This document shows positions 35,701 to 63,710 of a stretch of 64,000 nucleotides of DNA, in pieces (the first letter of the stretch is position 1; each line of letters opens with the position of its first letter). Where the stretch lies: NCBI GenBank assembly GCA_965249555.1, contig OZ252243.1:672001-736000 (forward strand). The letters are read 5' to 3'. The translations under genes were made by a program, and so were the position numbers. The DNA comes from Nitrosopumilus sp. (lineage in GTDB: Archaea; Thermoproteota; Nitrososphaeria; Nitrososphaerales; Nitrosopumilaceae). The notes beneath the pieces are model-generated. The model saw only the letters and a list, made by a program, of their open reading frames with translations, made no database searches and was not told the origin of the DNA.

Positions 35701-36997
35701 CAAACACAGGCTCACCAATTATAGAAAAAAGAAGGATATCCATACCAACTATGCCGATTCTTTCAGCATTATTTACTCGGTCAAAAATAAGAAGATCGGG
35801 AGTAATATCAAAGGTAGTGGCGCCGGGCGATAATGGGAAATTACCTAGCAATGTATCAACACCATTTTCAGTTATATAAAATGTATAAACATCGTTAGGA
35901 GATTCTACATTGCTCCAAGTTAATCTAATAGAATCGTCAGGTAATCTTTCAGCTGTTAAAGATGGTGGTAATGGAGGGGGTACTGCTGCAAACACAGGCT
36001 CACCAATTATAGAAGAAAGAAGGGACTCTTTACCAACTATGCCGATTCTTTCAGCATTATTTACTCGGTCAAAAATAAGAAGATCGGGAGTAATATCAAA
36101 GGTAGTAACACCAGGTGATAATGGGAAAGAATCTAGGCTTTTATCAACACCATCTTCAGTTATATAAAGTCCATAAACATTGTTAGGAGATTCTACATTG
36201 CTCCAAGTTAATCTAATAGAATCGTCAGGTAATCTTTCAGCTGTTAAAGATGGTAGTGGAACAAATGGTGTTGTTATTGTAGGTACTGCTGCAAACACAG
36301 GCTCACCAATTGTTATAGTAGACTCACTGGTCTCTTTGCCAACTAGGCCGATTCTTTCAGCATTGATTAATCTATCATAAAAGGGAGAAAGGGGAGTAAC
36401 AACAAATGTAGTAGCACCGGACAATAATATGAAATTAGATACTATTTCATCAACACCATCTTCAGTTAGATAAAGTCCATAAACATTGTTAGGAGATTCT
36501 ATATTGCTCCAAGTTAATCTAATAGAATCATCAGGTAATCTTTCAGCTGTTAAAGATGGTGGTGTTGTTGTTACAGGTGTTGCCATTGTAGGTACTGCAG
36601 TAAACACAGGCTCACCAATTATTGTAGAAGAAGAAGTGAGATAACCAACTATGCCGATTCTTTGAGCATTGACTAATCTCTCAAACTGGTTAAAAGCAGG
36701 AGTAAAATCAGTAGTGGTAACACCTTGTGATACTGGAGAAATAGTTACTATTTCATCAACACCATCTTCAGTTATATAAAATGTATAAACATTGTTAGGA
36801 GATTCTACATTACTCCAAGTTAATCGAATAGTACCATTAGGTAATAGTTCAGCTGTTAAAGATGGGTCGGGGTTAGTTTGAGCTTGAGCTTCTGCAACAC
36901 TTGCAAAGGTAAGTGATATGGTAAATAGTGCCACCAATACGAGGCAGAAAAATGGAAACTTGGTTGCTTGCAAAGGCAAGTTACATGACAGAGTCAC
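2714..36997 (-). CDS. Giant secreted surface/adhesin-like protein, 11,427 aa: signal peptide, 7 variable FN3-like domains, FN3/Ig region, long array of DUF5011/HYR-like and Big-like Ig domains, Nitrosopumilus-type C-terminal domain
   Basis: Uninterrupted ORF. Signal peptide TKFPFFCLVLVALFTISLTFASVAEAQ; DTTPPVIT/DTTAPVIT Ig linkers; Thr/Asp-rich. The true start is uncertain (GTG 36997, a TTG 8 codons downstream, or ATG 37019 if the G tract is G11). Confidence 0.9.
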   Translation of the reverse strand: MTLSCNLPLQATKFPFFCLVLVALFTISLTFASVAEAQAQTNPDPSLTAELLPNGTIRLTWSNVESPNNVYTFYITEDGVDEIVTISPVSQGVTTTDFTPAFNQFERLVNAQRIGIVGYLTSSSTIIGEPVFTAVPTMATPVTTTPPSLTAERLPDDSIRLTWSNIESPNNVYGLYLTEDGVDEIVSNFILLSGATTFVVTPLSPFYDRLINAERIGLVGKETSESTITIGEPVFAAVPTITTPFVPLPSLTAERLPDDSIRLTWSNVESPNNVYGLYITEDGVDKSLDSFPLSPGVTTFDITPDLLIFDRVNNAERIGIVGKESLLSSIIGEPVFAAVPPPLPPSLTAERLPDDSIRLTWSNVESPNDVYTFYITENGVDTLLGNFPLSPGATTFDITPDLLIFDRVNNAERIGIVGMDILLFSIIGEPVFAAVPTITTPFVSLPSLTAELLPNGNIRLTWSNVKSPSGMYELYITEDDVDEKLLVFILSQGVTTTDVTPLSPFYDRLINAQRIGIVGISPSYTLIIGELVFAAVPTITTPVTTSFASLPSLTAERLSDNYIRLTWSNIESPNDVYGLYITEDSVDTPLINFLLSPGVTSYDMDLDIPIFDRVNNAEKIGIVGISPSSSTIGELVFAAVPTITTPVTTSFASLPSLTAELLPNGNIRLTWSNVESSNGTYELYITEDGVDEVVSVFQLSQGVTTADFTPAFNHFERLVNAERIGIVGISFFPSSIIGEPVFTAVTTPKAPAIELDSFSVTPGFDDASASFTPLKSGTFTIGYGTDQTVSVIIDAVNTPSTTTVPVGYNYDNPVTLSFDSEIIGSVSVKTGPAPPALVQGAVTPTSVVITWTAQPGATGYELFRDDISIATPSDTSYTDETLTPESSYTYHATSTNDASQTSHPSDDLTVTTPKAPAVPAIEPGSFSVTPGFDDASATFVPLTSGTFTIGYDVDQTTTVEIAEDAVGVQLPPTTMPVGYNYRGDVTLSFDGDEIGRESITTPPAPPTLGAGAITPTSIEITWTAVDGANEYKLYRGDILLTTTGDTSYTETGLTPATSYTYYATSTNDISQTSVSSEDLIVTTPAAPTENPSLDDTEKPVITPTGSDTTIELTATDTYTEQGGTVTDNDPDYSETATPSGDTPDTSSIGVYTVLYDAPDDAAGNTPDQQSIVITVSDTTPPTFDVDGNTDDYSTTVPFGGTYAQGTIANAFDISGTAPGMVGGKTVNVNASGEYAVTYTVTDNNEQSRTITETVTVGPDVTPPVITVTPEEITLELDSPAPVLLDGVSTDDGSPITISGTVDVGTVGDYTITYSSTDGTNPAGDKTRTYKVTDTTPPPVPAITTPPATVGSTPITIDGTSTEAGATIQLFNGMTPAGTTTADDSGNFSFAGVELDEGGNSFTARASDGVNTSDPSPAVLITLDTTAPVITPTGSDTTIELTATDTYTEQGGTVTDNDPAYPGTVAVSGDTPDTSSIGVYTVLYDAPDDAAGNTPDQQSIVITVSDTTPPTFDVDGNTDDYSTTVPFGGTYTQGMIANAFDISGTAPGIVGGKTVNVNASGEYAVTYTVTDNNEQSRTITQTVTVGPDVTPPVITPTGSDTTIELTATDTYTEQGGTVTDNDPDYSETATPSGDTPDTSSIGVYTVLYDAPDDAAGNTPDQQSIVITVSDTTPPTFDVDGNTDDYSTTVPFGGTYAQGTIANAFDISGTAPGMVGGKTVNVNASGEYAVTYTVTDNNEQSRTITETVTVGPDVTPPVITVTPEEITLELDSPAPVLLDGVSTDDGSPITISGTVDVGTVGDYTITYSSTDGTNPAGDKTRTYKVTDTTPPPVPAITTPPATVGSTPITIDGTSTEAGATIQLFNGMTPAGTTTADDSGNFSFAGVELDEGGNSFTARASDGVNTSDPSPAVLITLDTTAPVITPTGSDTTIELTATDTYTEQGGTVTDNDPDYSETATPSGDTPDTSSIGVYTVLYDAPDDAAGNTPDQQSIVITVSDTTPPTFDVDGNTDDYSTTVPFGGTYAQGMIANAFDISGTAPGMVGGKTVNVNASGEYAVTYTVTDNNEQSRTITQTVTVGPDVTAPVITPTGSDTTIELTATDTYTEQGGTVTDNDPDYSETATPSGDTPDTSSIGVYTVLYDAPDDAAGNTPDQQSIVITVSDTTPPTFDVDGNTDDYSTTVPFGGTYAQGTIANAFDISGTAPGMVGGKTVNVNASGEYAVTYTVTDNNEQSRTITETVTVGPDVTPPVITVTPEEITLELDSPAPVLLDGVSTDDGSPITISGTVDVGTVGDYTITYSSTDGTNPAGDKTRTYKVTDTTPPPVPAITTPPATVGSTPITIDGTSTEAGATIQLFNGVTPAGTTTADDSGNFSFAGVELDEGGNSFTARASDGVNTSDPSPAVLITLDTTAPVITPTGSDTTIELTATDTYTEQGGTVTDNDPDYSETATPSGDTPDTSSIGVYTVLYDAPDDAAGNTPDQQSIVITVSDTTPPTFDVDGNTDDYSTTVSFGGTYTQGMIANAFDISGTAPGIVGGKTVNVNASGEYAVTYTVTDNNEQSRTITETVTVGPDVTAPVITPTGSDTTIELTATDTYTEQGGTVTDNDPDYSETATPSGDTPDTSSIGVYTVLYDAPDDAAGNTPDQQSIVITVSDTTPPTFDVDGNTDDYSTTVPFGGTYAQGTIANAFDISGTAPGMVGGKTVNVNASGEYAVTYTVTDNNEQSRTITETVTVGPDVTPPVITVTPEEITLELDSPAPVLLDGVSTDDGSPITISGTVDVGTVGDYTITYSSTDGTNPAGDKTRTYKVTDTTPPPVPAITTPPATVGSTPITIDGTSTEAGATIQLFNGVTPAGTTTADDSGNFSFAGVELDEGGNSFTARASDGVNTSDPSPAVLITLDTTAPVITPTGSDTTIELTATDTYTEQGGTVTDNDPDYSETATPSGDTPDTSSIGVYTVLYDAPDDAAGNTPDQQSIVITVSDTTPPTFDVDGNTDDYSTTVPFGGTYAQGTIANAFDISGIKSSTVGGKTVNVNASGEYAVTYTVTDNNEQSRTITETVTVGPDVTPPVITPTGSDTTIELTATDTYTEQGGTVTDNDPDYSETATPSGDTPDTSSIGVYTVLYDAPDDAAGNTPDQQSIVITVSDTTPPTFDVDGNTDDYSTTVPFGGTYAQGTIANAFDISGTAPGMVGGKTVNVNASGEYAVTYTVTDNNEQSRTITETVTVGPDVTPPVITVTPEEITLELDSPAPVLLDGVSTDDGSPITISGTVDVGTVGDYTITYSSTDGTNPAGDKTRTYKVTDTTPPPVPAITTPPATVGSTPITIDGTSTEAGATIQLFNGVTPAGTTTADDSGNFSFAGVELDEGGNSFTARASDGVNTSDPSPAVLITLDTTAPVITPTGSDTTIELTATDTYTEQGGTVTDNDPDYSETATPSGDTPDTSSIGVYTVLYDAPDDAAGNTPDQQSIVITVSDTTPPTFDVDGNTDDYSTTVPFGGTYAQGTIANAFDISGTAPGMVGGKTVNVNASGEYAVTYTVTDNNEQSRTITETVTVGPDVTAPVITPTGSDTTIELTATDTYTEQGGTVTDNDPDYSETATPSGDTPDTSSIGVYTVLYDAPDDAAGNTPDQQSIVITVSDTTPPTFDVDGNTDDYSTTVPFGGTYTQGTIANASDISGIKSSTVGGKTVNVNASGEYAVTYTVTDNNEQSRTITETVTVGPDVTPPVITPTGSDTTIELTATDTYTEQGGTVTDNDPDYSETATPSGDTPDTSSIGVYTVLYDAPDDAAGNTPDQQSIVITVSDTTPPTFDVDGNTDDYSTTVPFGGTYAQGTIANAFDISGTAPGMVGGKTVNVNASGEYAVTYTVTDNNEQSRTITQTVTVGPDVTPPVITVTPEEITLELDSPAPVLLDGVSTDDGSPITISGTVDVGTVGDYTITYSSTDGTNPAGDKTRTYKVTDTTPPPVPAITTPPATVGSTPITIDGTSTEAGATIQLFNGVTPAGTTTADDSGNFSFAGVELDEGGNSFTARATDGVNTSDPSPAVLITLDTIPPVITPTGSDTTIELTATDTYTEQGGTVTDNDPDYSETATPSGDTPDTSSIGVYTVLYDAPDDAAGNTPDQQSIVITVSDTTPPTFDVDGNTDDYSTTVPFGGTYTQGTIANASDISGIKSSTVGGKTVNVNASGEYAVTYTVTDNNEQSRTITETVTVGPDVTPPVITPTGSDTTIELTATDTYTEQGGTVTDNDPDYSETATPSGDTPDTSSIGVYTVLYDAPDDAAGNTPDQQSIVITVSDTTPPTFDVDGNTDDYSTTVPFGGTYAQGTIANAFDISGTAPGMVGGKTVNVNASGEYAVTYTVTDNNEQSRTITETVTVGPDVTPPVITVTPEEITLELDSPAPVLLDGVSTDDGSPITISGTVDVGTVGDYTITYSSTDGTNPAGDKTRTYKVTDTTPPPVPAITTPPATVGSTPITIDGTSTEAGATIQLFNGVTPAGTTTADDSGNFSFAGVELDEGGNSFTARATDGVNTSDPSPAVLITLDTIPPVITPTGSDTTIELTATDTYTEQGGTVTDNDPDYSETATPSGDTPDTSSIGVYTVLYDAPDDAAGNTPDQQSIVITVSDTTPPTFDVDGNTDDYSTTVPFGGTYTQGTIANASDISGIKSSTVGGKTVNVNASGEYAVTYTVTDNNEQSRTITETVTVGPDVTPPVITPTGSDTTIELTATDTYTEQGGTVTDNDPDYSETATPSGDTPDTSSIGVYTVLYDAPDDAAGNTPDQQSIVITVSDTTPPTFDVDGNTDDYSTTVPFGGTYTQGTIANAFDISGTAPGMVGGKTVNVNASGEYAVTYTVTDNNEQSRTITETVTVGPDVTPPVITVTPEEITLELDSPAPVLLDGVSTDDGSPITISGTVDVGTVGDYTITYSSTDGTNPAGDKTRTYKVTDTTPPPVPAITTPPATVGSTPITIDGTSTEAGATIQLFNGVTPAGTTTADDSGNFSFAGVELDEGGNSFTARATDGVNTSDPSPAVLITLDTIPPVITPTGSDTTIELTATDTYTEQGGTVTDNDPDYSETATPSGDTPDTSSIGVYTVLYDAPDDAAGNTPDQQSIVITVSDTTPPTFDVDGNTDDYSTTVPFGGTYTQGTIANASDISGIKSSTVGGKTVNVNASGEYAVTYTVTDNNEQSRTITETVTVGPDVTPPVITPTGSDTTIELTATDTYTEQGGTVTDNDPDYSETATPSGDTPDTSSIGVYTVLYDAPDDAAGNTPDQQSIVITVSDTTPPTFDVDGNTDDYSTTVPFGGTYTQGTIANAFDISGTAPGMVGGKTVNVNASGEYAVTYTVTDNNEQSRTITETVTVGPDVTPPVITVTPEEITLELDSPAPVLLDGVSTDDGSPITISGTVDVGTVGDYTITYSSTDGTNPAGDKTRTYKVTDTTPPPVPAITTPPATVGSTPITIDGTSTEAGATIQLFNGVTPAGTTTADDSGNFSFAGVELDEGGNSFTARATDGVNTSDPSPAVLITLDTIPPVITPTGSDTTIELTATDTYTEQGGTVTDNDPDYSETATPSGDTPDTSSIGVYTVLYDAPDDAAGNTPDQQSIVITVSDTTPPTFDVDGNTDDYSTTVPFGGTYTQGTIANASDISGIKSSTVGGKTVNVNASGEYAVTYTVTDNNEQSRTITETVTVGPDVTPPVITPTGSDTTIELTATDTYTEQGGTVTDNDPDYSETATPSGDTPDTSSIGVYTVLYDAPDDAAGNTPDQQSIVITVSDTTPPTFDVDGNTDDYSTTVPFGGTYAQGTIANAFDISGTAPGMVGGKTVNVNASGEYAVTYTVTDNNEQSRTITETVTVGPDVTPPVITVTPEEITLELDSPAPVLLDGVSTDDGSPITISGTVDVGTVGDYTITYSSTDGTNPAGDKTRTYKVTDTTPPPVPAITTPPATVGSTPITIDGTSTEAGATIQLFNGVTPAGTTTADDSGNFSFAGVELDEGGNSFTARATDGVNTSDPSPAVLITLDTIPPVITPTGSDTTIELTATDTYTEQGGTVTDNDPDYSETATPSGDTPDTSSIGVYTVLYDAPDDAAGNTPDQQSIVITVSDTTPPTFDVDGNTDDYSTTVPFGGTYTQGTIANASDISGIKSSTVGGKTVNVNASGEYAVTYTVTDNNEQSRTITETVTVGPDVTPPVITPTGSDTTIELTATDTYTEQGGTVTDNDPDYSETATPSGDTPDTSSIGVYTVLYDAPDDAAGNTPDQQSIVITVSDTTPPTFDVDGNTDDYSTTVPFGGTYAQGTIANAFDISGTAPGMVGGKTVNVNASGEYAVTYTVTDNNEQSRTITETVTVGPDVTPPVITVTPEEITLELDSPAPVLLDGVSTDDGSPITISGTVDVGTVGDYTITYSSTDGTNPAGDKTRTYKVTDTTPPPVPAITTPPATVGSTPITIDGTSTEAGATIQLFNGVTPAGTTTADDSGNFSFAGVELDEGGNSFTARATDGVNTSDPSPAVLITLDTIPPVITPTGSDTTIELTATDTYTEQGGTVTDNDPDYSETATPSGDTPDTSSIGVYTVLYDAPDDAAGNTPDQQSIVITVSDTTPPTFDVDGNTDDYSTTVPFGGTYTQGTIANASDISGIKSSTVGGKTVNVNASGEYAVTYTVTDNNEQSRTITETVTVGPDVTPPVITPTGSDTTIELTATDTYTEQGGTVTDNDPDYSETATPSGDTPDTSSIGVYTVLYDAPDDAAGNTPDQQSIVITVSDTTPPTFDVDGNTDDYSTTVPFGGTYTQGTIANAFDISGTAPGMVGGKTVNVNASGEYAVTYTVTDNNEQSRTITETVTVGPDVTPPVITVTPEEITLELDSPAPVLLDGVSTDDGSPITISGTVDVGTVGDYTITYSSTDGTNPAGDKTRTYKVTDTTPPPVPAITTPPATVGSTPITIDGTSTEAGATIQLFNGVTPAGTTTADDSGNFSFAGVELDEGGNSFTARATDGVNTSDPSPAVLITLDTIPPVITPTGSDTTIELTATDTYTEQGGTVTDNDPDYSETATPSGDTPDTSSIGVYTVLYDAPDDAAGNTPDQQSIVITVSDTTPPTFDVDGNTDDYSTTVPFGGTYTQGTIANASDISGIKSSTVGGKTVNVNASGEYAVTYTVTDNNEQSRTITETVTVGPDVTPPVITPTGSDTTIELTATDTYTEQGGTVTDNDPDYSETATPSGDTPDTSSIGVYTVLYDAPDDAAGNTPDQQSIVITVSDTTPPTFDVDGNTDDYSTTVPFGGTYAQGTIANAFDISGTAPGMVGGKTVNVNASGEYAVTYTVTDNNEQSRTITETVTVGPDVTPPVITVTPEEITLELDSPAPVLLDGVSTDDGSPITISGTVDVGTVGDYTITYSSTDGTNPAGDKTRTYKVTDTTPPPVPAITTPPATVGSTPITIDGTSTEAGATIQLFNGVTPAGTTTADDSGNFSFAGVELDEGGNSFTARATDGVNTSDPSPAVLITLDTIPPVITPTGSDTTIELTATDTYTEQGGTVTDNDPDYSETATPSGDTPDTSSIGVYTVLYDAPDDAAGNTPDQQSIVITVSDTTPPTFDVDGNTDDYSTTVPFGGTYAPGVINNQSDISGIKSSTVGGKTVNVNASGEYAVTYTVTDNNEQSRTITETVTVGPDVTPPVITPTGSDTTIELTATDTYTEQGGTVTDNDPDYSETATPSGDTPDTSSIGVYTVLYDAPDDAAGNTPDQQSIVITVSDTTPPTFDVDGNTDDYSTTVPFGGTYAQGTIANAFDISGTAPGMVGGKTVNVNASGEYAVTYTVTDNNEQSRTITETVTVGPDVTPPVITVTPEEITLELDSPAPVLLDGVSTDDGSPITISGTVDVGTVGDYTITYSSTDGTNPAGDKTRTYKVTDTTPPPVPAITTPPATVGSTPITIDGTSTEAGATIQLFNGVTPAGTTTADDSGNFSFAGVELDEGGNSFTARATDGVNTSDPSPAVLITLDTIPPVITPTGSDTTIELTATDTYTEQGGTVTDNDPDYSETATPSGDTPDTSSIGVYTVLYDAPDDAAGNTPDQQSIVITVSDTTPPTFDVDGNTDDYSTTVPFGGTYTQGTIANASDISGIKSSTVGGKTVNVNASGEYAVTYTVTDNNEQSRTITETVTVGPDVTPPVITPTGSDTTIELTATDTYTEQGGTVTDNDPDYSETATPSGDTPDTSSIGVYTVLYDAPDDAAGNTPDQQSIVITVSDTTPPTFDVDGNTDDYSTTVPFGGTYTQGTIANAFDISGTAPGMVGGKTVNVNASGEYAVTYTVTDNNEQSRTITETVTVGPDVTPPVITVTPEEITLELDSPAPVLLDGVSTDDGSPITISGTVDVGTVGDYTITYSSTDGTNPAGDKTRTYKVTDTTPPPVPAITTPPATVGSTPITIDGTSTEAGATIQLFNGVTPAGTTTADDSGNFSFAGVELDEGGNSFTARATDGVNTSDPSPAVLITLDTIPPVITPTGSDTTIELTATDTYTEQGGTVTDNDPDYSETATPSGDTPDTSSIGVYTVLYDAPDDAAGNTPDQQSIVITVSDTTPPTFDVDGNTDDYSTTVPFGGTYTPGVINNQSDISGIKSSTVGGKTVNVNASGEYAVTYTVTDNNEQSRTITETVTVGPDVTPPVITPTGSDTTIELTATDTYTEQGGTVTDNDPDYSETATPSGDTPDTSSIGVYTVLYDAPDDAAGNTPDQQSIVITVSDTTPPTFDVDGNTDDYSTTVPFGGTYAQGTIANAFDISGTAPGMVGGKTVNVNASGEYAVTYTVTDNNEQSRTITQTVTVGPDVTPPVITVTPEEITLELDSPAPVLLDGVSTDDGSPITISGTVDVGTVGDYTITYSSTDGTNPAGDKTRTYKVTDTTPPPVPAITTPPATVGSTPITIDGTSTEAGATIQLFNGVTPAGTTTADDSGNFSFAGVELDEGGNSFTARATDGVNTSDPSPAVLITLDTIPPVITPTGSDTTIELTATDTYTEQGGTVTDNDPDYSETATPSGDTPDTSSIGVYTVLYDAPDDAAGNTPDQQSIVITVSDTTPPTFDVDGNTDDYSTTVPFGGTYTQGTIANASDISGIKSSTVGGKTVNVNASGEYAVTYTVTDNNEQSRTITETVTVGPDVTPPVITPTGSDTTIELTATDTYTEQGGTVTDNDPDYSETATPSGDTPDTSSIGVYTVLYDAPDDAAGNTPDQQSIVITVSDTTPPTFDVDGNTDDYSTTVPFGGTYAQGTIANAFDISGTAPGMVGGKTVNVNASGEYAVTYTVTDNNEQSRTITETVTVGPDVTPPVITVTPEEITLELDSPAPVLLDGVSTDDGSPITISGTVDVGTVGDYTITYSSTDGTNPAGDKTRTYKVTDTTPPPVPAITTPPATVGSTPITIDGTSTEAGATIQLFNGVTPAGTTTADDSGNFSFAGVELDEGGNSFTARASDGVNTSDPSPAVLITLDTTAPVITPTGSDTTIELTATDTYTEQGGTVTDNDPAYPGTVAVSGDTPDTSSIGVYTVLYDAPDDAAGNTPDQQSIVITVSDTTPPTFDVDGNTDDYSTTVPFGGPYTQGVINNQSDISGIKSSTVGGKTVNVNASGEYAVTYTVTDNNEQSRTITETVTVGPDVTPPVITPTGSDTTIELTATDTYTEQGGTVTDNDPDYSETATPSGDTPDTSSIGVYTVLYDAPDDAAGNTPDQQSIVITVSDTTPPTFDVDGNTDDYSTTVPFGGPYTPGVINNQSDISGIKSSTVGDETVNVNASGEYAVTYTVTDNNGQVATITETVTVESDVTAPPVPAITTPPATVGASPITIDGGSTEAGATITLFNGATPAGTVTADGSGSFSFAGVVLDEGANSFTARASDGVNTSGPSPAIVITLDTIAPEAPIITTSPVTVGSSSFTIEGTAEAGTTVALLKGATSTGDTVAADSGSFSFTVTLTEGENSFTATASDGPNTSGASPAVLITLDTETPPVPAITTPSETVSLSSFTIEGTAEAGTTVELFNEGSTVDTITADGDGNFSFTVTLTDGENSFTATATDGPNTSASSSPVLITLDTIAPVITVDKDSFSVELGETYTAFTYSANDNTDGDITDNVVVGDTVDTSVANTYTVTFDVDDAAGNHAVTVTRTVTVTPDATVPTITVNEDSLSVELGGTYELFTFTANDNTDGIITGEVTVAGYPADTDTAGTYDVTFDVDDAVGNHAVTVARTVTVTDTTAPVITPAGSTQTIELTQTNTYTEQGAIVTDNDPVYTGTVAVTGATPDTRVVKEYTVLYNAPDDAAGNTPDEKSIVITVVDTTAPEAPEITTSPATVNTPSFTIEGTAEAGTTVALLKGATSTGDTVAADGDGNFSFTGVALDEGENSFTATASDGPNTSASSSPVLITLDTTAPEAPEITTSPATVNTPSITIEGTAEAGTTVELFKGGTSTGDTVTADSGSFSFTVTLTDGENSFTATASDGPNTSDASSPVLITLDTIPPEAPIITTPPATVNTPSFTIEGTAEAGTTVALLKGATSTGDTVTADSGSFSFTVTLTKGANSFTVTASDGPNTSASSSPILITLDTTAPAVPAITTPPATVNTPSITIDGTAEAGTTVELFRGGTTVDTVTADSGSFSFTVTLTDGENSFTATASDGPNTSAASPAIVITLDTIAPVITVDKDSFSVELGETYTAFTYSANDNTDGDITDNVVVGDTVDTSVDNTYNVTFDVDDAAGNHAVTVTRTVTVTADTTVPSITVNEESFSIELGETYTPFTFTATDNTDGVITDDVSVGGDTVDTSEVGTYDVTFDVDDAAGNPAVTVTRTVTVTADTTAPTLPDTEKPVITPAGSSEIIELTQTNTYTIPDATVTDNNQAYSGTVTVTGDTPDTSSIGEYTVLYDAPDDAAGNTPDQKSITITVVDTTAPTFDVDGHTVDYSTAVPFDGTYTPGVIANESDISGIASSLVGGETVNANTSRDYVVTYTVTDSNGQVATITETVTVESDTTAPPVPAIATSPAIVSSSPITIEGGSTEAGATIELFNGATPAGTVIADGSGNFSFTEVALDEGENSFTATASDGVNTSAASPSIVITLDTTAVGGTASVPSGTETPKKKGGDSNEWKTKPTFGKHWNNQAVQLVDDGFVFNGMPLTITNNWHTDFNMTSSIIGDNNTVHIKGYATNGLKSVSLSLGVPEVGLKTNAESHIIVNVNSNYTSPAGYDIADIVHEQKEGLVNQNMTGATISKVKCTSSDTAERCFDVTISFVIMAPLSHEVLAINAVDKQRYSTTTYINEGVEFVGEALLAAATHELKQKHGNQNPFETISLTQQDRRYQVWEDQYGYIWSQNDYGTWLQITRPDIQQRDDSPTSVMTRIHSNFANLVIDEQDRATLIFDSKAIQGTLDESFSYDMPLRLDRVSDPALLESLSIQEMLAREMLCDCMIYDDSDFSWND
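7630..33705 (-). repeat. Intragenic tandem array of 53 modules of 492 bp: 36 'AB' and 17 'CD' modules, mostly a 1476-bp (AB-AB-CD) period, with one extra AB near 26.1-26.6 kb
   Basis: Antisense shadow ORFs recur at exact 492/984/1476 offsets (7903, 8395, 9379...; 8556, 10032...24792, then 26760). Copies differ by only a few SNPs. Confidence 0.95.
34765..36865 (-). repeat. Seven ~95-100 aa FN3-like repeats with conserved framework and variable segments
   Basis: PSLTAE(L/R)LP...IRLTWSN(V/I)ES...YITEDGVD-[variable]-NA(E/Q)RIGIVG-[variable]-IGE(P/L)VF(A/T)AV occurs seven times. Confidence 0.9.
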
Positions 36998-37008
36998 CCC
37001 CCCCCCCC
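36997..37008 (-). promoter_or_regulatory. G12 homopolymer between an upstream ATG (37019) and the giant ORF; candidate phase-variation tract
   Basis: 12 consecutive C on the + strand in an otherwise AT-rich region. AT-rich TATA-like sequence lies at 37041-37060. Confidence 0.5.
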
Positions 37009-37075
37009 GGGCGGGGCATTAACGCAGTGAATAATATTTTTCATATAATATTATAAATAATTTAATTTATATAGT

Positions 37076-37348
37076 TTAAAATATCTGTCTGTGTTGTCTT
37101 TTTTGCTTTTTCCATTCAATGGAATTTTTTGATGGCGGAGAGCGTGCATTCTCATAATATGACAGTCTTTTTTGCAGTTCCTTGTTTGATTCTATGAGAT
37201 TCTCTATGATTAATTTTAGTTGTTTTATCTCTGCTTGTAGCTGTATGATGATTTTCTCATGACCACAACCTGACATGTTTTATATGATGATTTAGTTGAT
37301 CTTAGATCTTTTTGTGTAATGATATTGATTTGTGCGTGAAGGTTGATA
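37076..37348 (-). mobile_element. Truncated IS66-family element: left end plus first 66 codons of the transposase; its terminal IR is split by the IS110
   Basis: MSGCGHEKIIIQLQ...YYENARSPPSKNS is near-identical to the N-terminus of 62044..63393. The upstream sequence matches 61967-62043. The missing terminal CATAC reappears at 38678-38682. Confidence 0.9.
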
Positions 37349-37355
37349 ACTATAT

Positions 37356-38471
37356 GTGAATACAAAAAGAAGGAATTCAGATAGCATAGGAAATGAATCT
37401 AATTCCAAGATTCGTAATTCATCGTATTCCAAGAAAAGTCCAAAGAAACAGATTAGGGGAAAAAAAGACAAGGGCATGTATGTTGGCATTGACTTGCACA
37501 AGAAATTTCTTCAAGTGGCAACAATGGATAATGACGGAAAGATATTACAAAACATAAAAGTTGAGAACACTCATGAATCAATCAGGAAACATTTTACAGA
37601 CATACCGATTCATGCAAACATTGTCATGGAATCATCATCAGTTTGGTATAACACGTATAGATTTCTTACAGATGAATTGGGATACAAAAACGTAATACTG
37701 TCAAACCCGTATCTTACAAAGGCAATAGCTGCATCAAAAAAGAAGACAGACAAGATTGATGCCAGGATACTGGCAGATCTTTTGCGCGGGGGATACATTG
37801 CAACATGTCATGTTCCAAACAAAAAGATAGTAAAACATCGCCAGCTGGTAAGATACAGAAAAAAACTCATTCAGTGGAGAACATCTCTCAAAAATTCTGT
37901 CCATGGAATTTTGTTGCAGGAGGGAATCAAGATACCAGGAGTCACGTTCACTGTAACATACAACAGAAGACTCACCTCCCTAGGTGACTATCGCATAGAC
38001 GGATTCGTACGACAGATAGACTATCTTAATCTGCAAATTGAAGATATTAATTCAAGAGTGTATGCTGCTGTAAATGCCAGTCCTGATGCCATGATAATAA
38101 AATCAATACCCGGAATTGGTGACTACTCGTCACTAGTTATCGCATCAGAAATTGCAAATATTGACAGATTCAACAACTCTCACAAGTTATGCGCATATGC
38201 AGGAGTCGTGCCATCAGTCAGAAACTCTGCAGACACGATACATCATGGCCGTATAACCAAAAGAGGAAGCATGACACTACGATGGGTCCTTATCCAATGC
38301 GTCCATTCTCATGCAATACATGCCAAGAACAGTGACATTACAAAATTTTACAATCGCATTAAAAAGAAGAGAGGCTCATCAAAGGCCGCAGTTGCCGCAT
38401 CATCAAAGATCCTGCGAGTGATTTACTGGATGCTAAAAGAGAGGAGAGAATTTGTACAGAATTACAGTTAG
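37356..38471 (+). CDS. IS110-family DEDD transposase/recombinase
   Basis: MYVGIDLHK, VMESS, KKTDKIDA (DEDD RuvC-like domain); SIPGIG...EIANIDRF...LCAYAGVVPSVRNSA (Transposase_20 domain with Ser). Confidence 0.95.
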   Translation: MNTKRRNSDSIGNESNSKIRNSSYSKKSPKKQIRGKKDKGMYVGIDLHKKFLQVATMDNDGKILQNIKVENTHESIRKHFTDIPIHANIVMESSSVWYNTYRFLTDELGYKNVILSNPYLTKAIAASKKKTDKIDARILADLLRGGYIATCHVPNKKIVKHRQLVRYRKKLIQWRTSLKNSVHGILLQEGIKIPGVTFTVTYNRRLTSLGDYRIDGFVRQIDYLNLQIEDINSRVYAAVNASPDAMIIKSIPGIGDYSSLVIASEIANIDRFNNSHKLCAYAGVVPSVRNSADTIHHGRITKRGSMTLRWVLIQCVHSHAIHAKNSDITKFYNRIKKKRGSSKAAVAASSKILRVIYWMLKERREFVQNYS

Positions 38472-38650
38472 GACTGCAAGTCGCGTTTGGTATGTTGAGG
38501 GACAGGCCTCGGTTGATAACTGCGGATAGGTCCTAACGAAGGGATGAAGATAGCATTGAGGAAGAAGCCTCGTATGGATACATGTCCGTCATCTTTTGTT
38601 TGAAAGCATTCCCTAGCGAAAGCTATGCCTTGGGATGTAAAAAAGTAGGA
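38467..38650 (+). ncRNA. Predicted bridge RNA/seekRNA of the IS110 element: target-binding loop, donor-binding loop, 3' GNRA hairpin
   Basis: Stem GTTAGGAC (38467-74)/GTCCTAAC (38530-37) encloses GGTATGT-t-GAGG..CCTC-GGTTGATAACT. Stem GGGATGA/TCATCTT encloses ATAGCAT-t-GAGG..CCTC-gtATGGATACAT. TAGC-GAAA-GCTA hairpin follows. Confidence 0.8.
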
Positions 38651-38682
38651 AATGTATAAAAACAATTCACATGGATACATAC

Positions 38683-39062
38683 CTAATTTTTCCTTGTTCT
38701 CCTCAAAGACTATGTTGTCGTATTGGATTTTGTGTTTGTTTAGAAATTTCTCAACACCCTTGCTGTGTATGGGATTGTTGGTTACTATATCCACACCATC
38801 ATACATCTCTGATAGTATCCTTATCTTTTGTTCCAGCATCAGCTCTGTCGGCTCTAGCGTATCCCACTGCTCCCAGCACTGCGAATATCCCGCGTGCATC
38901 ATCATATGTCATGTTGAATTTTCTGTAAAAACCAAACTCGCTTATCTTGTTATATGACAGTTTCAAGTCGGAATATTTTGCAGAATAGTCCATGTTGAAT
39001 ATTGAGATCCATTTTTTTATCGTATTTGATAGTACACCATCAAAGTCTACGGCTATACTCAT
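38683..39062 (-). pseudogene. HAD-family 5'(3')-deoxyribonucleotidase-like gene, frameshifted and 3'-truncated by the IS66/IS110 insertion
   Basis: MSIAVDFDGVL (HAD motif I). It continues in another frame (CWEQWDTLEP...VDIVTN...YDNIVF) up to the IS boundary. Confidence 0.75.
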
Positions 39063-39119
39063 GTTATTTGTTAGAATATTTTAAAAATTATTTGTAAAAA
39101 ATACTAAATATTTTTTAAA

Positions 39120-42231: not shown

Positions 42232-42471
42232 TTATTCTGATAACCCATGATGATCAAAGACTCCCAACTTTGTTTCGGTCTCCCTATCTTTCCTAGCTCT
42301 TTCTCTAGAACCCATATAGCGAGCTTTGGTTCTTAATAGATGTCCACAACATGGACATCTTGCTCCCTCACATTTGATATACATCTCACATACTTTGCAA
42401 CGTTTCCGTCCACCATCATATCGTGTACCTTTTTCTGTTACCCTATATCTGATGCAAATTCCCTTACAAGC
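42232..42471 (-). pseudogene. Thaumarchaeal small Cys-rich zinc-finger protein lacking its start codon (abuts IS110 fragment)
   Basis: Manual translation: ACKGICIRYRVTEKGTRYDGGRKRCKVCEMYIKCEGARCPCCGHLLRTKAR... Confidence 0.75.
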
Positions 42472-43161
42472 TAGGTGACTATCGCATAGACGGATTCGTA
42501 CGACAGATAGACTATCTTAATCTGCAAATTGCAGTGATTAATTCAAGAGTGTATGCTGCTGTAAAGACCAGTCCTGATGCCATGATAATAAAATCAATAC
42601 CAGGAATTGGTGACTAATCACTAGTTATCGCATCAGAAATTGCAGATATTACCAGATTCAATGACTCTCACAAGTTATGCGCATATGCACGAGTCGTGCC
42701 ATCAGTCAGAAACTCTGCAGACACGATACACCATGGCAGCATAACCAAAAGAGGAAGCATGACACTACGATGGGTCCTTGTCCAATGCGTCCATTCTCAT
42801 GCAATACATGCCAAGAACAGTGACATTACAAAATTTTACAATCGCATTAAAAAGAAGAGAGGCTCATCAAAAGATGTAGTTGCCGCATCATCAAAGATCC
42901 TGCGAGTGATTTACTGGATGCTAAAAGAGAGAATTTGTACAGAATTACAGTTAGGACTGCAAGTCGCGTTTTGTATGTTGAGGGACAGGCCTCGGTTGAT
43001 AACTGCGGATAGGTCCTAACGAAGGGATGAAGATAGCAATTGAGGAATAAGCCTCGTATGGATACATGTCCGTCATCTTTTGATTGAAAGCATTCTCCAG
43101 CGAAGGCTATGCCTTGGGATGCAAAAAAGTGGGAAATGTATAAAAACAATTCACATGGATA
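42471..43161 (+). mobile_element. 5'-truncated, frameshifted IS110 copy retaining the full non-coding end (second bridge-RNA copy at ~42950-43135)
   Basis: High identity to 37980-38677; ends ATTCACATGGA-TA followed by CATAC. Confidence 0.9.
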
Positions 43162-56578: not shown

Positions 56579-57241
56579 TCATATATCTGACCGTAACCTA
56601 TTTCCATTCTTGTCAAAATCCATTTTACAATACAACACACCATTCCCATCATATCTCTTCTGCCATTTCCTATTCCCATTCTCATGGTACTCTATTTCAT
56701 AATCTAATTTCCCATTATCATGATATCCTTTTTCCCATTTCCCATTCCCATGGTACTTTATTTCATAATTTAATTTCCCATTCTCATAATATCCTTTTTC
56801 CCATTTCCCATTCCCATTCTCTTGAAGCTCTGCTTCTAATTGCAATTGTCCATTCTCATAATATCCTTTACCCCATTTCCCATTCCCATTCTCATGGTAC
56901 TCTATTTCATAATCTAATTTCCCATTATCATAATATCCTTTTTTCCATTTCTTATTCCCATTCTCTTGAAGCTCTGCTTCTAATTGCAATTGTCCATTTT
57001 CATAATAGCCTTTACCCCATTTCCTATTCCCATTCTCATAGTACTCTATTTCATAATATAATTTCCCATTCTCATAATATCCTTTTTCCCATTTCCTATT
57101 CCCATTCTCATGGTACTCTATTTCATAATCTAATTTCCCATTATCATAATATCTTTTTTCCCATTTCCTATTCCCATTCTCTTGAAGCTCTGCTTCTAAT
57201 TTCAATTGTCCATTCTTATAATAGAGTTTTTTTCGTTTCAT
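56579..57241 (-). CDS. MORN2-repeat (YwqK-like) protein; 5' region degraded and cut by an IS66 end
   Basis: 24-aa (72-bp) repeats YYENG(K/Q)L..E.EY.ENGN.KWEKG. A further repeat upstream carries an in-frame TAG. Confidence 0.8.
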   Translation of the reverse strand: MKRKKLYYKNGQLKLEAELQENGNRKWEKRYYDNGKLDYEIEYHENGNRKWEKGYYENGKLYYEIEYYENGNRKWGKGYYENGQLQLEAELQENGNKKWKKGYYDNGKLDYEIEYHENGNGKWGKGYYENGQLQLEAELQENGNGKWEKGYYENGKLNYEIKYHGNGKWEKGYHDNGKLDYEIEYHENGNRKWQKRYDGNGVLYCKMDFDKNGNRLRSDI

Positions 57242-57344
57242 ATTTCCATCCTCTTGATACTGTATTTCACCTTTTAATTTCCCATTTTCATGCTATTCTT
57301 TGTATGGTAGTTTTCCCATTATGTTTGATCCTATTAGTTTTTGA

Positions 57345-57405
57345 GTATGTATCAACCTTCACGCACAAATCAATATCATTACACAAAAAGATCCAAGATC
57401 AACTA
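57345..57405 (+). mobile_element. IS66 left end (IR plus leader) fused to an IS110 left end
   Basis: GTATGTATCAACCTTCACGCAC...AAGATCAACTA matches 61967 onward. Confidence 0.85.
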
Positions 57406-58413
57406 ACTATATGTGAATACAAAAAGAAGGAATTCAGATAGCATAAAAAATGAACCCAGATCCAGGAGTCGTAATCCATCGTATTCCAAGAAAAGTCCAA
57501 AGAAACAGATTAGGGCAAAAAAAGACAAGGGCATGTATGTTGACATTGACTTGCACAAGGAATTTCTTCTAGCAACAATGGATAATGACAGAAAGATATT
57601 ACAAAACATAAAAGTTGAGAACACTCATAAATCAATCAAGAAACATTTTACAGACATACCAATATTGTCATGGAATCATCATCAGTCTGGTATGGCACGT
57701 ATAGATTTCTTACAGATGAATTAGGATACAAAAATGTTACACTCTCAAACCCGTATCTTACAAAGGCAATAGCTGCATCAAAAAAAACAGGCAAGATTGA
57801 TGCTATGATACTAGCCAGATCTTTTGCGCGGGGGATACATTGCAACATGCCATATTCCAAACAAAAAGATAGTAAAACATCGCCAGCTGGTAAGATACAG
57901 AAAAAAACTCGTTCAGTTTAGAATCTCTCTCAAAAATTCTGTTCATGGAATTTTGTTACAAGAGGGAATCAAGATACCCGGAGTCACGTTCACTGTAACA
58001 TACAACAGAAAACTCATGTTACTAGATGACTATCGCATAGATGGATTTGTACGACAGATAGACTATCCTAATCTGCAAATTGCAGAGATTAATTCAAGAG
58101 TGTATGCTGCTGTAAAGACCAGTCCTGATGCCATGATAATAAAATCAATGCCAGGAATTGGTGACTACTCGTCACTAGTTATCGCATCAGAAATTGCAAA
58201 TATTAACAGATTCAACAACTCTCACAAGTTATGCGCATATGCCGGAGTCGTGCTATCAGTTAGAAATTCTGCAGACACAATACACCATGGCAGTATAACC
58301 AAAAGGGGAAGCATGACACTACGATGGGTTCTTATCCAATGTGTTCATTCTCATGCAATACATGCCAAGAACAGTGACATTACAAAATTTTACAATCGCA
58401 TTAAAAAGAAGAG
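57404..58413 (+). pseudogene. Degenerate IS110 copy: multiple frameshifts, 3' end and non-coding end lost
   Basis: Three ORF fragments (57413, 57670, 57824) are collinear with 37356..38471; left end TA-ACTATATGTGAAT. Confidence 0.9.
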
Positions 58414-60881: not shown

Positions 60882-61780
60882 AGATAATTGATAAAATTCA
60901 GGGAAGTGAAATTAATGATGGATTTATTGGTGGGATGCCTGGAGATGAGTTGACAGCCATATACAAGAACAATACAGGTACAGCACGTCTTACATTCTTT
61001 ATTGCAAATTTTGGCGCAACTATAGAACTTGACCAAAAAATATACAGGCCTACAGATAAAGTATACATTACAATTGTCGCACCTGATTTTAATTTTAATT
61101 CTAATATGATTGACAAAATAGGAATAAATCCTGAAAGCATCATAAATATTTGTACTCGTAAAGACAAGATGGAGAGATATCAACTGGTTGAAACAGGTGT
61201 AGATACTGGAATTTTTACAGGTGAAATTCAATTGGGTAGGAACGTAGGCGAACAGATATCAAAAACAAACGGCATTGGACCTACTGATGGAGAATTAATG
61301 TGTGAAGATGATGATTTCATAGAGGTTTCATTTAATTTGTTTGGAGATGAGGAGGTTTTAGGAAGAGCTAAGATAAAATCTGTTGTGAATAAACCATGAC
61401 TTTGTAAAACCGCATCAAGGATTGAATAGAAAACACCTGCAGAAGCAACAAACATTGATCTTGATTTGGGTACTGACAAATATTTGGATTTGGTCAAGCC
61501 GGAACTAAAGTCGATTTTGTAAACAATTTGGGAAAGAGAATCAAGAAAATTACAATAGTCAATGAGGAGGATGCCATCAAAGTTACACCTACAGGTTGGA
61601 TTGATAAGAAAATATGGCAAGAGATAAATGATATTTTGGGACTTTGCAAGTTTTGTTGGTTGTCAAATGGCAAGGACAGTTGCAGGATTAGGATGAACTC
61701 TTAGATCAATTCTTGATTTTTTACTATGTGTTTGATCAGCGTAGTATATGCTACTTGTATTGATTTGCCTATTCCACCTT

Positions 61781-61936
61781 GAAGATAGCATTGAGGTTAA
61801 AGCCTCGTATGGATACATGTCCGTCATCTTTTGATTGAAAGCATTCCCTAGCGAAAGCTATGCCTTGAGATGCAAAAAAGTGGAAAATGTATAAAAACAA
61901 TTCACATGGATACATCTAAAGTGCTTGGATACATAC
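61781..61936 (+). mobile_element. IS110 right-end remnant (donor loop, 3' hairpin, end at 61912) joined to an IS66 right end (61911-61936)
   Basis: Matches 38546-38677; then TA-CATCTAAAGTGCTTGGATACATAC. Confidence 0.85.
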
Positions 61937-61966: not shown

Positions 61967-63408
61967 GTATGTATCAACCTTTACGCATGAATCAACACTA
62001 TTACACAAAAAGATCTAAGATCAACTAAATCATCATACAAAACATGTCAGGTTGTGGTCATGAGAAAATCATCATACAGCTACAAGAAGAGATAAAACAA
62101 CTACAAGCAGAGATAAAACAACTAAAACTAATCACAGGGAATCTCATAGAATCAAACAAGGAACTGCAAAAAAAGCTGTCATATTATGAGAATGCGCACT
62201 CTCCGCCATCAAAGAATTCCCTTGAATGGAGAAAGCAAAAAAGACAACACAGACAGCCAGGCAAATCAAGACGTGGTGGAATAGCAGGACACGTTGGCAA
62301 GACACAGAAATTCAGACCAACTAGCACCAAACACCACAGATCAGATGCATGTCCCAAATGCGGTAGTGAAAATATTCATCAAACCAAAACCTGCAAAAGG
62401 ATAATGGTTGAGATTCCTCCACCAACACCCTACGGTATAACTGAGCATGTTTTGAATCAATACATCTGCATGGACTGTTCTGATAATTTTCAAACCACGG
62501 GAAACCTTCCACTACATGGATGTTTTGATGGTTCAGTGATACGTGAGGTCGTCTCACTGTTCTCAAAGAGATTGCCATATGATACCATCAGAACCACACT
62601 CTATGAAAGATATGGATTAGAAATCAGCAATACAACCGTACAATCCATTCTTCGCAACGGTAGTGTGATGTTAGAGTCATTTTACAATACAATCCACAGC
62701 GAAATCGTGACTGAAAAGATTCTCGGAATCGATGAGACAGGATTTTCAATTGATGGAAATACTGGATGGATGTGGGTTGCAAGAAGCAAGACTAGTGCAC
62801 AGTATGCCTTGGAGTACAGCAGAGGTGCCAATGTTCTAAAAAAGTACTGGAAGAAATTCAAAGGAACCCTAGTGTCTGACGGATATGCTCCGTACAGGAC
62901 AGTATTTTGTGATAACACAAAGCAGAGATGCACTGCACACCTGCAGCGCGATGCCAAATATCTGGCAATAAAATCAAAAGACAAAAAGGCCAGGATTCTA
63001 TACGAGAAACTCTCAGATATGCTAGGTCATGCCAGGGTTTGGAGTGTAGGTAATCGTCATACAAAACGGCGGGAAACGTACAGGAATGATTTACTAAAAC
63101 AGCTGGACCGTATCATTGCACGATATTTGAAAGGTGATATGGAGATGGTTCAGTTTGGCAAGAAGCTAAAGACTGCAAGGAACAGCATGTTTACGTTTGT
63201 CATGGATGGCGATGTCCCGTCAACTAACAATGATGCAGAGAATTCCATTCGAAAGTGCGTGATGCAGAGGAATGTTCGCGGGCAGATGAAGAGTGATCAG
63301 GGCATGAGGATGATCTCAGTCTTTCTCACATGCTTTGAGACATGGAGAATAAGGGAATTGAACATGTTTTCTGAAATGGCAAAATACATCTAAGTGCTTA
63401 ATACATAC
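61967..63408 (+). mobile_element. Complete single-ORF IS66-family element (ISBst12-like group), 1442 bp
   Basis: IRs GTATGTATCAACC / GCTTAATACATAC; 8-bp TSD ATGAAAAA at 61959-66 and 63409-16. Confidence 0.92.
62044..63393 (+). CDS. IS66-family transposase
   Basis: Coiled coil, SPPS, CPKC...CMDC zinc finger, IDETG, WMWV, VSDGYAPY, QRCTAHLQR, TNNDAENSIR. Confidence 0.95.
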   Translation: MSGCGHEKIIIQLQEEIKQLQAEIKQLKLITGNLIESNKELQKKLSYYENAHSPPSKNSLEWRKQKRQHRQPGKSRRGGIAGHVGKTQKFRPTSTKHHRSDACPKCGSENIHQTKTCKRIMVEIPPPTPYGITEHVLNQYICMDCSDNFQTTGNLPLHGCFDGSVIREVVSLFSKRLPYDTIRTTLYERYGLEISNTTVQSILRNGSVMLESFYNTIHSEIVTEKILGIDETGFSIDGNTGWMWVARSKTSAQYALEYSRGANVLKKYWKKFKGTLVSDGYAPYRTVFCDNTKQRCTAHLQRDAKYLAIKSKDKKARILYEKLSDMLGHARVWSVGNRHTKRRETYRNDLLKQLDRIIARYLKGDMEMVQFGKKLKTARNSMFTFVMDGDVPSTNNDAENSIRKCVMQRNVRGQMKSDQGMRMISVFLTCFETWRIRELNMFSEMAKYI

Positions 63409-63615: not shown

Positions 63616-63692
63616 AAATAATTAATTTCCACAATATACTTTTTTTCTATAATTCATATCTAGGTTAAGTAAATTTGTTATGTGGTTTCCAC

Positions 63693-63710
63693 ATTCACAT
63701 GGATACATAC
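63693..63710 (+). mobile_element. Minimal scar: IS110 right end plus IS66 terminus
   Basis: ATTCACATGGA-TA-CATAC, identical to 38665-38682. Confidence 0.6.

Follow-up and report, generated by a model that had tools for sequence, protein, structure and literature searches.

The locus described here raises the question of how one transposable element came to lie, to the base, inside the terminal repeat of another, and whether an RNA encoded by the intruder could have selected the site. It is found in a 64,000-nt stretch of DNA from Nitrosopumilus sp. (GCA_965249555.1, contig OZ252243.1, positions 672,001-736,000 of the forward strand), termed the window, to which plain coordinates refer. The host genome is a single contig of 2.23 Mb. 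It contains archaeal amoA, and the closest relatives of the intruder's recombinase among named records belong to Nitrosopumilus metagenome-assembled genomes (MAGs); going by these two marks the host is a Nitrosopumilus-like ammonia-oxidising archaeon, as an earlier note on this DNA had supposed in calling it thaumarchaeal. The intruder, at 37349-38677, is very probably an IS1111-type member of the IS110 family with a guide RNA, whose loops match both the ends of the element itself and the left tip of an IS66-family transposon, the place in which it sits.

The junctions of the element read ...GAAGGTTGATA / ACTATATGTGAAT ... ATTCACATGGATA / CATACCTAAT.... A TA stands on both sides, in agreement with the TA core claimed previously, and there is no target duplication, the state by which IS110-family insertions are recognised. 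Excision of 37349-38677 joins GGTTGATA to CATAC and gives GGTTGATACATAC, the reverse complement of GTATGTATCAACC; 5 bp separate the insertion point from the outer end of the IS66 left inverted repeat. The motif coordinates of the earlier note, including the element at 37349-38677 and CATACC at 38678-38683, are all borne out. GTATGTATCAACC is one of the two imperfect terminal repeats, the other being GTATGTATTAAGC, of an intact element in the same window, which encodes DDE_Tnp_IS66 (PF03050 at 4.8e-42, 144.8 bits) and is bracketed by a perfect duplication, ATGAAAAA. The co-resident transposon is thus a true IS66-family element, and the window also holds the empty target that had been announced, since GTATGTATCAACC is intact at 61967 and again at 57345.

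BLAST of the element against the host genome yields 42 matches, nine of which are full length, and the sequence divergence between copies is 3-12%. Using probes built from both ends, we located 21 left ends and 29 right ends, whose similarity breaks off exactly at the boundaries that correspond to 37349 and 38677, and TA terminates 27 of the 29 right ends. A 17-bp remnant at 63690-63710, about 280 bp past the intact IS66 and missed by BLAST, consists of the IS110 right end followed by CATAC. The sub-terminal inverted repeats of the window copy are 8 bp long, which is within the 7-17 bp reported for IS1111 elements (PMC11208160). Its non-coding ends measure 206 nt downstream of the gene and, upstream, 127 nt if the ATG is taken as the start and 7 nt if the GTG is.

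The encoded protein is an IS110 recombinase, as proposed, since it contains both Pfam domains of the family (PF01548 at 3.9e-25, 88.9 bits with a cut-off of 29; PF02371 at 1.7e-21, 76.8 bits with a cut-off of 21.3) and aligns with the solved IS621 recombinase (8wt6; E = 1.5e-13). In this alignment the GID, E, D..D and C-terminal S, catalytic residues whose identities were taken from published papers, fall in the same columns as in IS621. The IS1111 motif GL-P----S(t)G, characteristic of recombinases of 330-350 aa, reads G-V-V-P-x4-S-A here, in a protein of 331 aa (from the ATG) or 371 aa (from the GTG). Among 401 genomes sampled from the archaeal class, 77 contain a homologue at a cut-off of E <= 1e-20, a tally that includes one genome flagged unpublished and that supports no other statement made here. 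By its gene order, its sub-terminal repeats and the order of its putative guides, that is by features and not by a tree, the element is classed as IS1111-type.

The minimum-free-energy fold of the 3' non-coding end shows two internal-loop modules plus a third hairpin, and both modules enclose the same inner stem, TGAGG...GCCTCG, an identity that had already been pointed out. We aligned the sequence 3' of the recombinase stop codon from 16 of 30 homologous loci (50-100% protein identity), which were picked by eye as cuttable in register. RNAalifold returned 25 consensus pairs in five helices, with compensatory changes in 10 pairs, and the two-module shape that the earlier note had predicted for this end was recovered and is conserved with covariation in the 16 homologues. 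Pairing on the consensus structure is kept in 94.7% of the cells, versus 29-45% when the partners are slid by 1-3 columns, and the covariation score is 0.369, versus at most 0.166 for slid structures, a comparison in which the structure is favoured because it was derived from the same 16 sequences; none of 500 column shuffles matched the observed pairing or score. The predicted product is a two-loop guide RNA of about 130-170 nt, directly 3' of the stop codon, whose structure is conserved with covariation. The words assigned to its loops were found where they had been placed: GGTATGT at 38489-38495 and GGTTGATA at 38511-38518 in loop 1, ATAG at 38550-38553 and ATGGATA at 38574-38580 in loop 2.

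The words that junctions and loops have in common are longer than first reported. The 11-mer GGTTGATAACT is present at the left junction (37341), in loop 1 (38511) and in loop 1 of the second copy (42994), which makes three matches in the window versus 0.04 expected (0 of 100 shuffles reach three), and the 10-mer ATGGATACAT is shared by loop 2 and the right junction in every copy, with nine window matches versus 0.48 expected. The 3' word of loop 2 matches the right end, the core and three further bases exactly, and in relatives the right-end word and loop 2 change together (ATGGGTA, ATAGATA). In the host genome, 20 copies differ pairwise at a mean of 0.33 per position in the 5' guide of loop 1 and 0.32 in its 3' guide (38511-38516), whereas the value is 0.06 for the rest of the 206 nt and 0.00 for both guide segments of loop 2. 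Thus, the loop-1 guide positions are about five times as variable as the remaining RNA.

To compare guides with insertion sites across genomes, guides and flanks were parsed by pattern in 30 loci from other genomes, which gave the right end in 20, loop 1 in 15 of those 20 and the left flank in 12; two of the loci occupy one identical site in two genomes and are hence non-independent. The left guide agrees with its own left flank at 3.58 of 6 positions, versus 1.48 for non-cognate pairs (n = 12; 0 of 20000 permutations). The complementary run of the right guide is 5.33 nt, versus 2.68 nt for non-cognate pairs (n = 15; 0 of 20000 permutations), with four registers permitted for cognate and non-cognate pairs alike because the core-to-hairpin position shifts among close relatives. 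Within the host genome, the right guide fits its own flank at 5.58 of 9 positions versus 4.83 for the others, a value that 37 of 20000 permutations equalled. The claim that guides correspond to insertion sites therefore stands for both guides across genomes and for the right guide within this one, and does not hold in general for the left guide within this one, as detailed below.

The 22 loop-1 sequences of the host genome make up 12 distinct guide pairs. The IS66 left tip is spelled in full, 13 of 13 positions, by eight loops that belong to two pairs, and at 12 of 13 by three more; one loop (copy G000:C1:1584436) spells IS66 positions 54-66 at 12 of 13, the site occupied by the truncated window copy at 57406. 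Random 1442-bp segments of the genome do as well in 25-32 of 1000 draws, which is approximately the share of the genome taken up by IS66. Left junctions lie within IS66-like sequence in 12 of 21 cases: the window copy at the left tip, two copies at the right tip, single copies at position 62 and near the right end, and seven behind the first 31 bp of IS66. The right flanks (n = 29) start with CATAC in 16 cases and with the IS66 right-end word CATCTAAAG in two. The suggestion that the element acts as a hyperparasite of another insertion sequence is supported: IS66 ends are hit repeatedly in two genomes, the second being treated below, and 9 of the 21 left junctions here are outside IS66-like sequence, a caveat to IS66 targeting. 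A second IS66 site, 31 bp from the left tip, was considered and dropped as a simple insertion site; the guide pair that looked closest to it has at least 3 mismatches in 13, which random DNA equals (836-1000 of 1000 segments), and no right junction continues into IS66 there.

A guide RNA of this kind may have worked as described while the family is now dying in this genome, with the window copy immobile and its match to the IS66 tip the record of an old event; we give this rather less than an even chance. Divergence among the copies is 3-12%, the 42 matches are for the most part fragmentary, and guides frequently disagree with the flanks beside them. The interrupted IS66 has 86.7% identity to the intact copy and falls short of the length of the 27 young ones, which are 91-98% identical and all free of an insertion at the tip. 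Since the interrupted IS66 is old and truncated and the 27 intact copies are unoccupied, current activity in the host genome is doubtful. Against a relic speaks the state of the window copy: its 371-codon frame is open, its ends and RNA region are undamaged, and its guides agree perfectly with the target; two other copies also retain the frame.

Relatives in other genomes bear on the preference for IS66 ends. The Nitrosopumilus MAG chromosome OZ250170.1 contains a relative with 76% protein identity in at least 13 near-identical copies of 1330 bp. Its loop 1 is unlike that of the window copy, the 5' side being complementary to TGATTCATA and the 3' side reading CTTGCTA. In 11 of 13 copies the right flank, (T)TGATTCATAC, is the end of an IS66-like right repeat, and the guides fit that repeat. 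On the left, nine copies adjoin an IS66-like left arm of 66-74 bp that ends in TTTGCTA and marks a miniature IS66 derivative, and two adjoin the 3' end of a full IS66-like gene. Seven copies retain the whole left arm; compared pairwise, their IS110 bodies are 99.5% alike and their IS66-like arms 84.7%, and the insertions were therefore separate. By this reasoning a young element has repeatedly entered old, separately diverged miniature elements at one position, and seeking IS66 ends is a habit of the lineage, exercised with different guides in a second genome. In this element (L079-L090, L114) the right junction is TT or a single T and the left junction TA, which suggests recombination at a target core that differs from that of the donor.

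Could the transposase of IS66 have moved a composite of IS66 ends around an IS110 element, without any seeking of IS66 ends? Seven left junctions in the host genome have the same 31 bp of the IS66 left end and the G-variant first base in common, copies of this type end in ...GGATACATAC, which resembles the IS66 right tip, and in OZ250170.1 perfect 8-bp duplications bracket the miniature element together with IS110 in three of eight copies. A one-piece composite would diverge evenly, however, and the 99.5% versus 84.7% of bodies and arms rules it out there. In the host genome, none of the three composites examined has a target duplication, although the intact window IS66 has a perfect one, and transport by IS66 would leave unexplained both the guides that spell junctions and the copies outside IS66; overall, we regard it as improbable. 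Least probable of all, and barely credible, is that protein-DNA contacts pick the sites and that the 3'-end words are leftovers of past recombination: the guide RNA is here a prediction, the 3' side of loop 1 copies the left junction exactly, including three element bases, as a captured junction would, and the left-guide fit is poor in the host genome, but compensatory changes maintain the structure in which the words have their fixed positions, the word on the 5' side is the reverse complement rather than a copy, both words vary with the flanks across 12-15 genomes, and RNA guidance has been experimentally proven for the family (10.1101/2024.04.26.591405; PMC11208160).

The reading that we prefer, an IS1111-type element whose guide RNA matches its own ends and the IS66 left tip, has a number of observations weighing against it. 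In the protein, the serine-adjacent glycine of IS621 is replaced by alanine, so that the conserved SG reads SA, and an uninterrupted 373-codon frame is present in just three copies. The guide RNA is predicted from sequence; the energy of the single-sequence fold is ordinary (z = -0.97), and Rfam, searched with permissive thresholds over 37200-38800, gave chance-level matches only (best 19 bits, versus a gathering threshold of 60). The match of loop 2 to the donor right half, i.e. the left end of the element, is weak, at 4 nt in this copy and 5 nt where the left end begins with G, and the distance between core and inner hairpin differs by 1-2 bases between close relatives, for which we have no explanation. 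Within the host genome the right guide gives a weak signal once the shared CATAC is set aside (837 of 20000 permutations), and the agreement of the left guide with the left flank is not significant (2.6 of 6 positions versus 2.49; 7502 of 20000 permutations). A good left fit is seen in 2 of 10 copies, the window copy (6/6) and G000:C1:282102-283430 (5/6); the poor fit of the others is taken as putative flank exchange among the approximately 40 copies and fragments. Moreover, for the other ten of the 22 loops, which make up eight pairs, random DNA equals the fit to IS66, and all 27 full IS66 copies of the genome have unoccupied tips. In favour of the reading, the copy at G000:C1:282102-283430 has guides that are unlike those of the majority and fit its own non-IS66 flanks at 9/9 and 5/6. 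Contigs of four DNA runs, compared with 36900-39100, were fragmented repeat contigs with no joint across the element, which speaks neither for nor against.

Under the preferred reading, whose mechanism is drawn with good confidence from family membership and covariation, the element encodes a DEDD/serine recombinase, and the guide RNA directly behind its stop codon would be made, bind the recombinase and direct recombination. The 5' side of module 1 is complementary to the right half of the target, and the 3' side, which reproduces the left half together with the TA core, would therefore pair with the bottom strand. Module 2, with the same layout, would recognise the joined ends of the element itself. 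The complex of recombinase and RNA would then unite the excised circular element with the target and exchange strands at the TA, leaving the element flanked by TA without target duplication. The guides of the window copy spell the 13 bp at the tip of the IS66 left repeat, exactly where this copy sits. The features on which this model draws, together with the other IS110 and IS66 sequences of the window, are listed in Table 1.

Table 1. Positions of the IS110-family element, its predicted RNA and related features in the window.
Feature	Position	Strand	Remarks
IS110-family (IS1111-type) insertion sequence	37349..38677	+	1329 bp, right-hand TA included
Recombinase gene	37356..38471	+	371 aa from GTG 37356; conserved 331-aa core from ATG 37476
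Target left half plus TA core, GGTTGATA	37341..37348	+	Inner part of IS66 left inverted repeat, opposite strand; same as loop 1 38511-38518
Target right half, CATACC	38678..38683	+	CATAC forms the 5-bp tip of the IS66 left inverted repeat; next C is flank
Left sub-terminal inverted repeat, ATGTGAAT	37354..37361	+	GTG start of the 371-codon frame lies within
Right sub-terminal inverted repeat, ATTCACAT	38665..38672	+	
Putative target-binding module (loop 1)	38467..38537	+	Outer stem 38467-38475/38528-38537; second stem 38481-38485/38520-38524; inner hairpin 38496-38511
Putative right-target guide, loop 1 5' side	38486..38495	+	Complement ACATACC is second core base plus CATACC, 38677-38683
Putative left-target guide plus core plus three further bases, loop 1 3' side, GGTTGATAACT	38511..38521	+	Same as left junction 37341-37351
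Putative donor-binding module (loop 2)	38541..38597	+	Closing stem 38542-38545/38584-38587; inner hairpin 38557-38572
Loop 2 5' side	38546..38556	+	Contains ATAGC, complement of GCTAT in the G-variant left end
Loop 2 3' side, TATGGATACAT	38573..38583	+	Equals element right end plus core plus CAT
Third hairpin of 3' non-coding end	38608..38640	+	Single-sequence fold only
TATA-box-like sequence, TATAAAAA	38655..38662	+	Begins 22-23 nt before right end
Interrupted IS66 remnant	37085..37348	-	IS66 positions 6-290 (BLAST); 86.7% identical to intact copy; cut at position 290
Second IS110 copy, 5'-truncated	42471..43161	+	Element positions 632-1329; own guide RNA (predicted); right flank CATACATT
Third IS110 copy, 3'-truncated	57406..58413	+	Element positions 1-1023; 62 bp inside IS66 left end beginning at 57345
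IS110 right-end fragment	61780..61912	+	Element positions 1197-1329; adjoins last 23 bp of an IS66 right end
Intact IS66-family element	61967..63408	+	1442 bp; 8-bp target duplication ATGAAAAA; left repeat 61967-61979 is an unoccupied target

Comparison with known systems places the element among relatives whose RNA guides have been described. Bridge RNAs with a target and a donor loop were reported by Durrant et al. 2024 (PMC11208160), who predicted such an RNA in the right end of 93% of IS1111-group elements, and Siddiquee et al. (10.1101/2024.04.26.591405) described the seekRNAs of IS1111 elements as having the top-strand match 5' of the bottom-strand match. The same order is found in the window element, which also resembles the IS1111 group (ISEc11, ISKpn4, ISPa11, ISPst6) in its sub-terminal repeats and in the long non-coding region 3' of the gene. 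In contrast to that group, it resides in an ammonia-oxidising archaeon, has a TA core and SA for SG, opens its frame inside the left sub-terminal repeat and carries a TATA-like box in place of the bacterial -35. IS621 of the IS110 group (8wt6 and others) has the same protein domains and the same target and donor internal loops, each loop with one side per DNA strand and the core within the pairing; its RNA, however, is in the left end upstream of the gene, whereas that of the window element would lie downstream, with the order reversed. IS4321/IS5075, on the inverted repeats of Tn21, likewise are IS110-family elements fixed on the terminal repeat of another transposon in one orientation and position, although they are bacterial and target Tn3-family transposons. 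ISPpu9, an IS110-family element that targets repetitive extragenic palindromic (REP) sequences, inserts in short genomic repeats, and a Nitrosopumilus relative of the window element sits in a repeated palindrome; the target of the window copy, in contrast, is a transposon end and not an extragenic palindrome.

The finding is not new in kind, because bridge and seek RNAs were published in 2024 and IS1111 elements with transposon inverted repeats as their targets in 2003, and the general picture of how bridge-RNA systems work is unchanged. Natural reprogramming of seekRNAs and their occurrence in archaea have been mentioned (10.1101/2024.04.26.591405), and 662 archaeal IS110 recombinases have been counted (10.1101/2024.06.21.599552). 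IS110 goes unmentioned in the accessible part of a 2019 survey of 20 thaumarchaeal genomes (PMC6563490), and a 2026 survey, as far as its accessible part goes, found all 27 annotated insertion sequence families in Thermoproteota, with a Nitrosopumilus genome the most rich in them (PMC13343696). In the literature on IS110 together with Nitrosopumilus, Nitrososphaer- or Thaumarchaeota we found no description of these RNAs. The present locus would place a complete, readable bridge-RNA system in mesophilic ammonia-oxidising archaea, with recombinase, guide RNA, donor ends and both occupied and empty targets. The family offers a series of naturally reprogrammed guides, both inside a single genome and from one sister genome to another. 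Their targets comprise left and right tips of IS66, a palindromic repeat and AT-rich sites, and the series could help to derive the pairing rules of IS1111-type guides, including the register shift. Finally, the locus would be a case, in archaea, of one transposable element policing or exploiting another.

Further relatives extend the range of sites. One with 85% protein identity (L062, L064, L068, L070, L071, L091) sits in the repeated palindrome AATTTTGGTGATC..GATCACCAAAAGTTACCAGAAC, which its guides fit, and another type is found at ..AATA/ATTACA.. in varied loci, with other guides. The right flanks of L035 and L038 are the 3' strand of a loop-1 module (ACTGCGG... and ACTGCAGAATGGTTCT), which in L038 is identical to that of its own module; both elements lie inside the guide-RNA gene of a sibling, exactly after the left-guide word.

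Two short IS66 derivatives of 36 bp and 54 bp (G000:C1:2069964-2069999 and G000:C1:506590-506643) consist of the first 31 bp of IS66 joined to CATAC and to the last 23 bp, respectively. Their inner joints combine left and right halves of the places at which IS110 junctions are found, and no target duplication surrounds either of them. Seven IS110 copies are inserted in an apparent 36-bp form, which may be a real target or a scar. Complete IS66 ends adjoin IS110 fragments within the guide-RNA region (loop 1, loop 2) at G000:C1:529439/529440 and G000:C1:2122029/2122030, where neither a matching other half nor a duplication was found. Going by these arrangements, the IS66 and IS110 families interrupt each other in both directions.

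The ends of the element may also hold a split promoter. Among the homologues (loci L031-L060), 16 of 20 have a TATA-like heptamer whose start is 21-24 nt from the right end, versus about 3% by chance, and in 12 of 14 a GTG within the left sub-terminal repeat is in frame with, and open to, the recombinase. The N-terminal extension that this start adds is basic and keeps an NKQIRG-like motif. When the ends are joined, the GTG comes to lie about 27 nt from the centre of the TATA-like box. This is the usual archaeal spacing. The position of the box, the in-frame GTG and this spacing led us to the idea that TATAAAAA may be one half of a promoter that is complete only after the ends join and then gives a leaderless mRNA. 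If this is true, a leaderless mRNA encoding the 371-aa protein, basic N-terminal tail included, would be produced only from the excised circle or from tandem copies. Our literature search found no published case of such a split promoter with a leaderless mRNA, and a promoter rebuilt across joined ends has been reported in the family (PMC11208160). An archaeal version of that rebuilding, in a lineage whose guides diversify within single genomes to attack several places at IS66 ends and whose recombinase left the 36-bp and 54-bp derivatives as deletion scars, is a speculative picture that we think unlikely to hold in full.

On the reverse strand, 2714-36997 is a single open frame of 11,427 codons with long near-identical repeat blocks, which starts 88 bp from the truncated IS66 remnant. 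Eight tandem 72-bp units at 56588-57373 reach and overlap the IS66 left end at 57345. A short open frame on the reverse strand (38799-39062 and 38468-38905) has a weak match to a 5'-nucleotidase (NT5C) that covers the first 70 of 180 profile positions only, and the gene adjoining the IS66/IS110 insertion may thus be broken.

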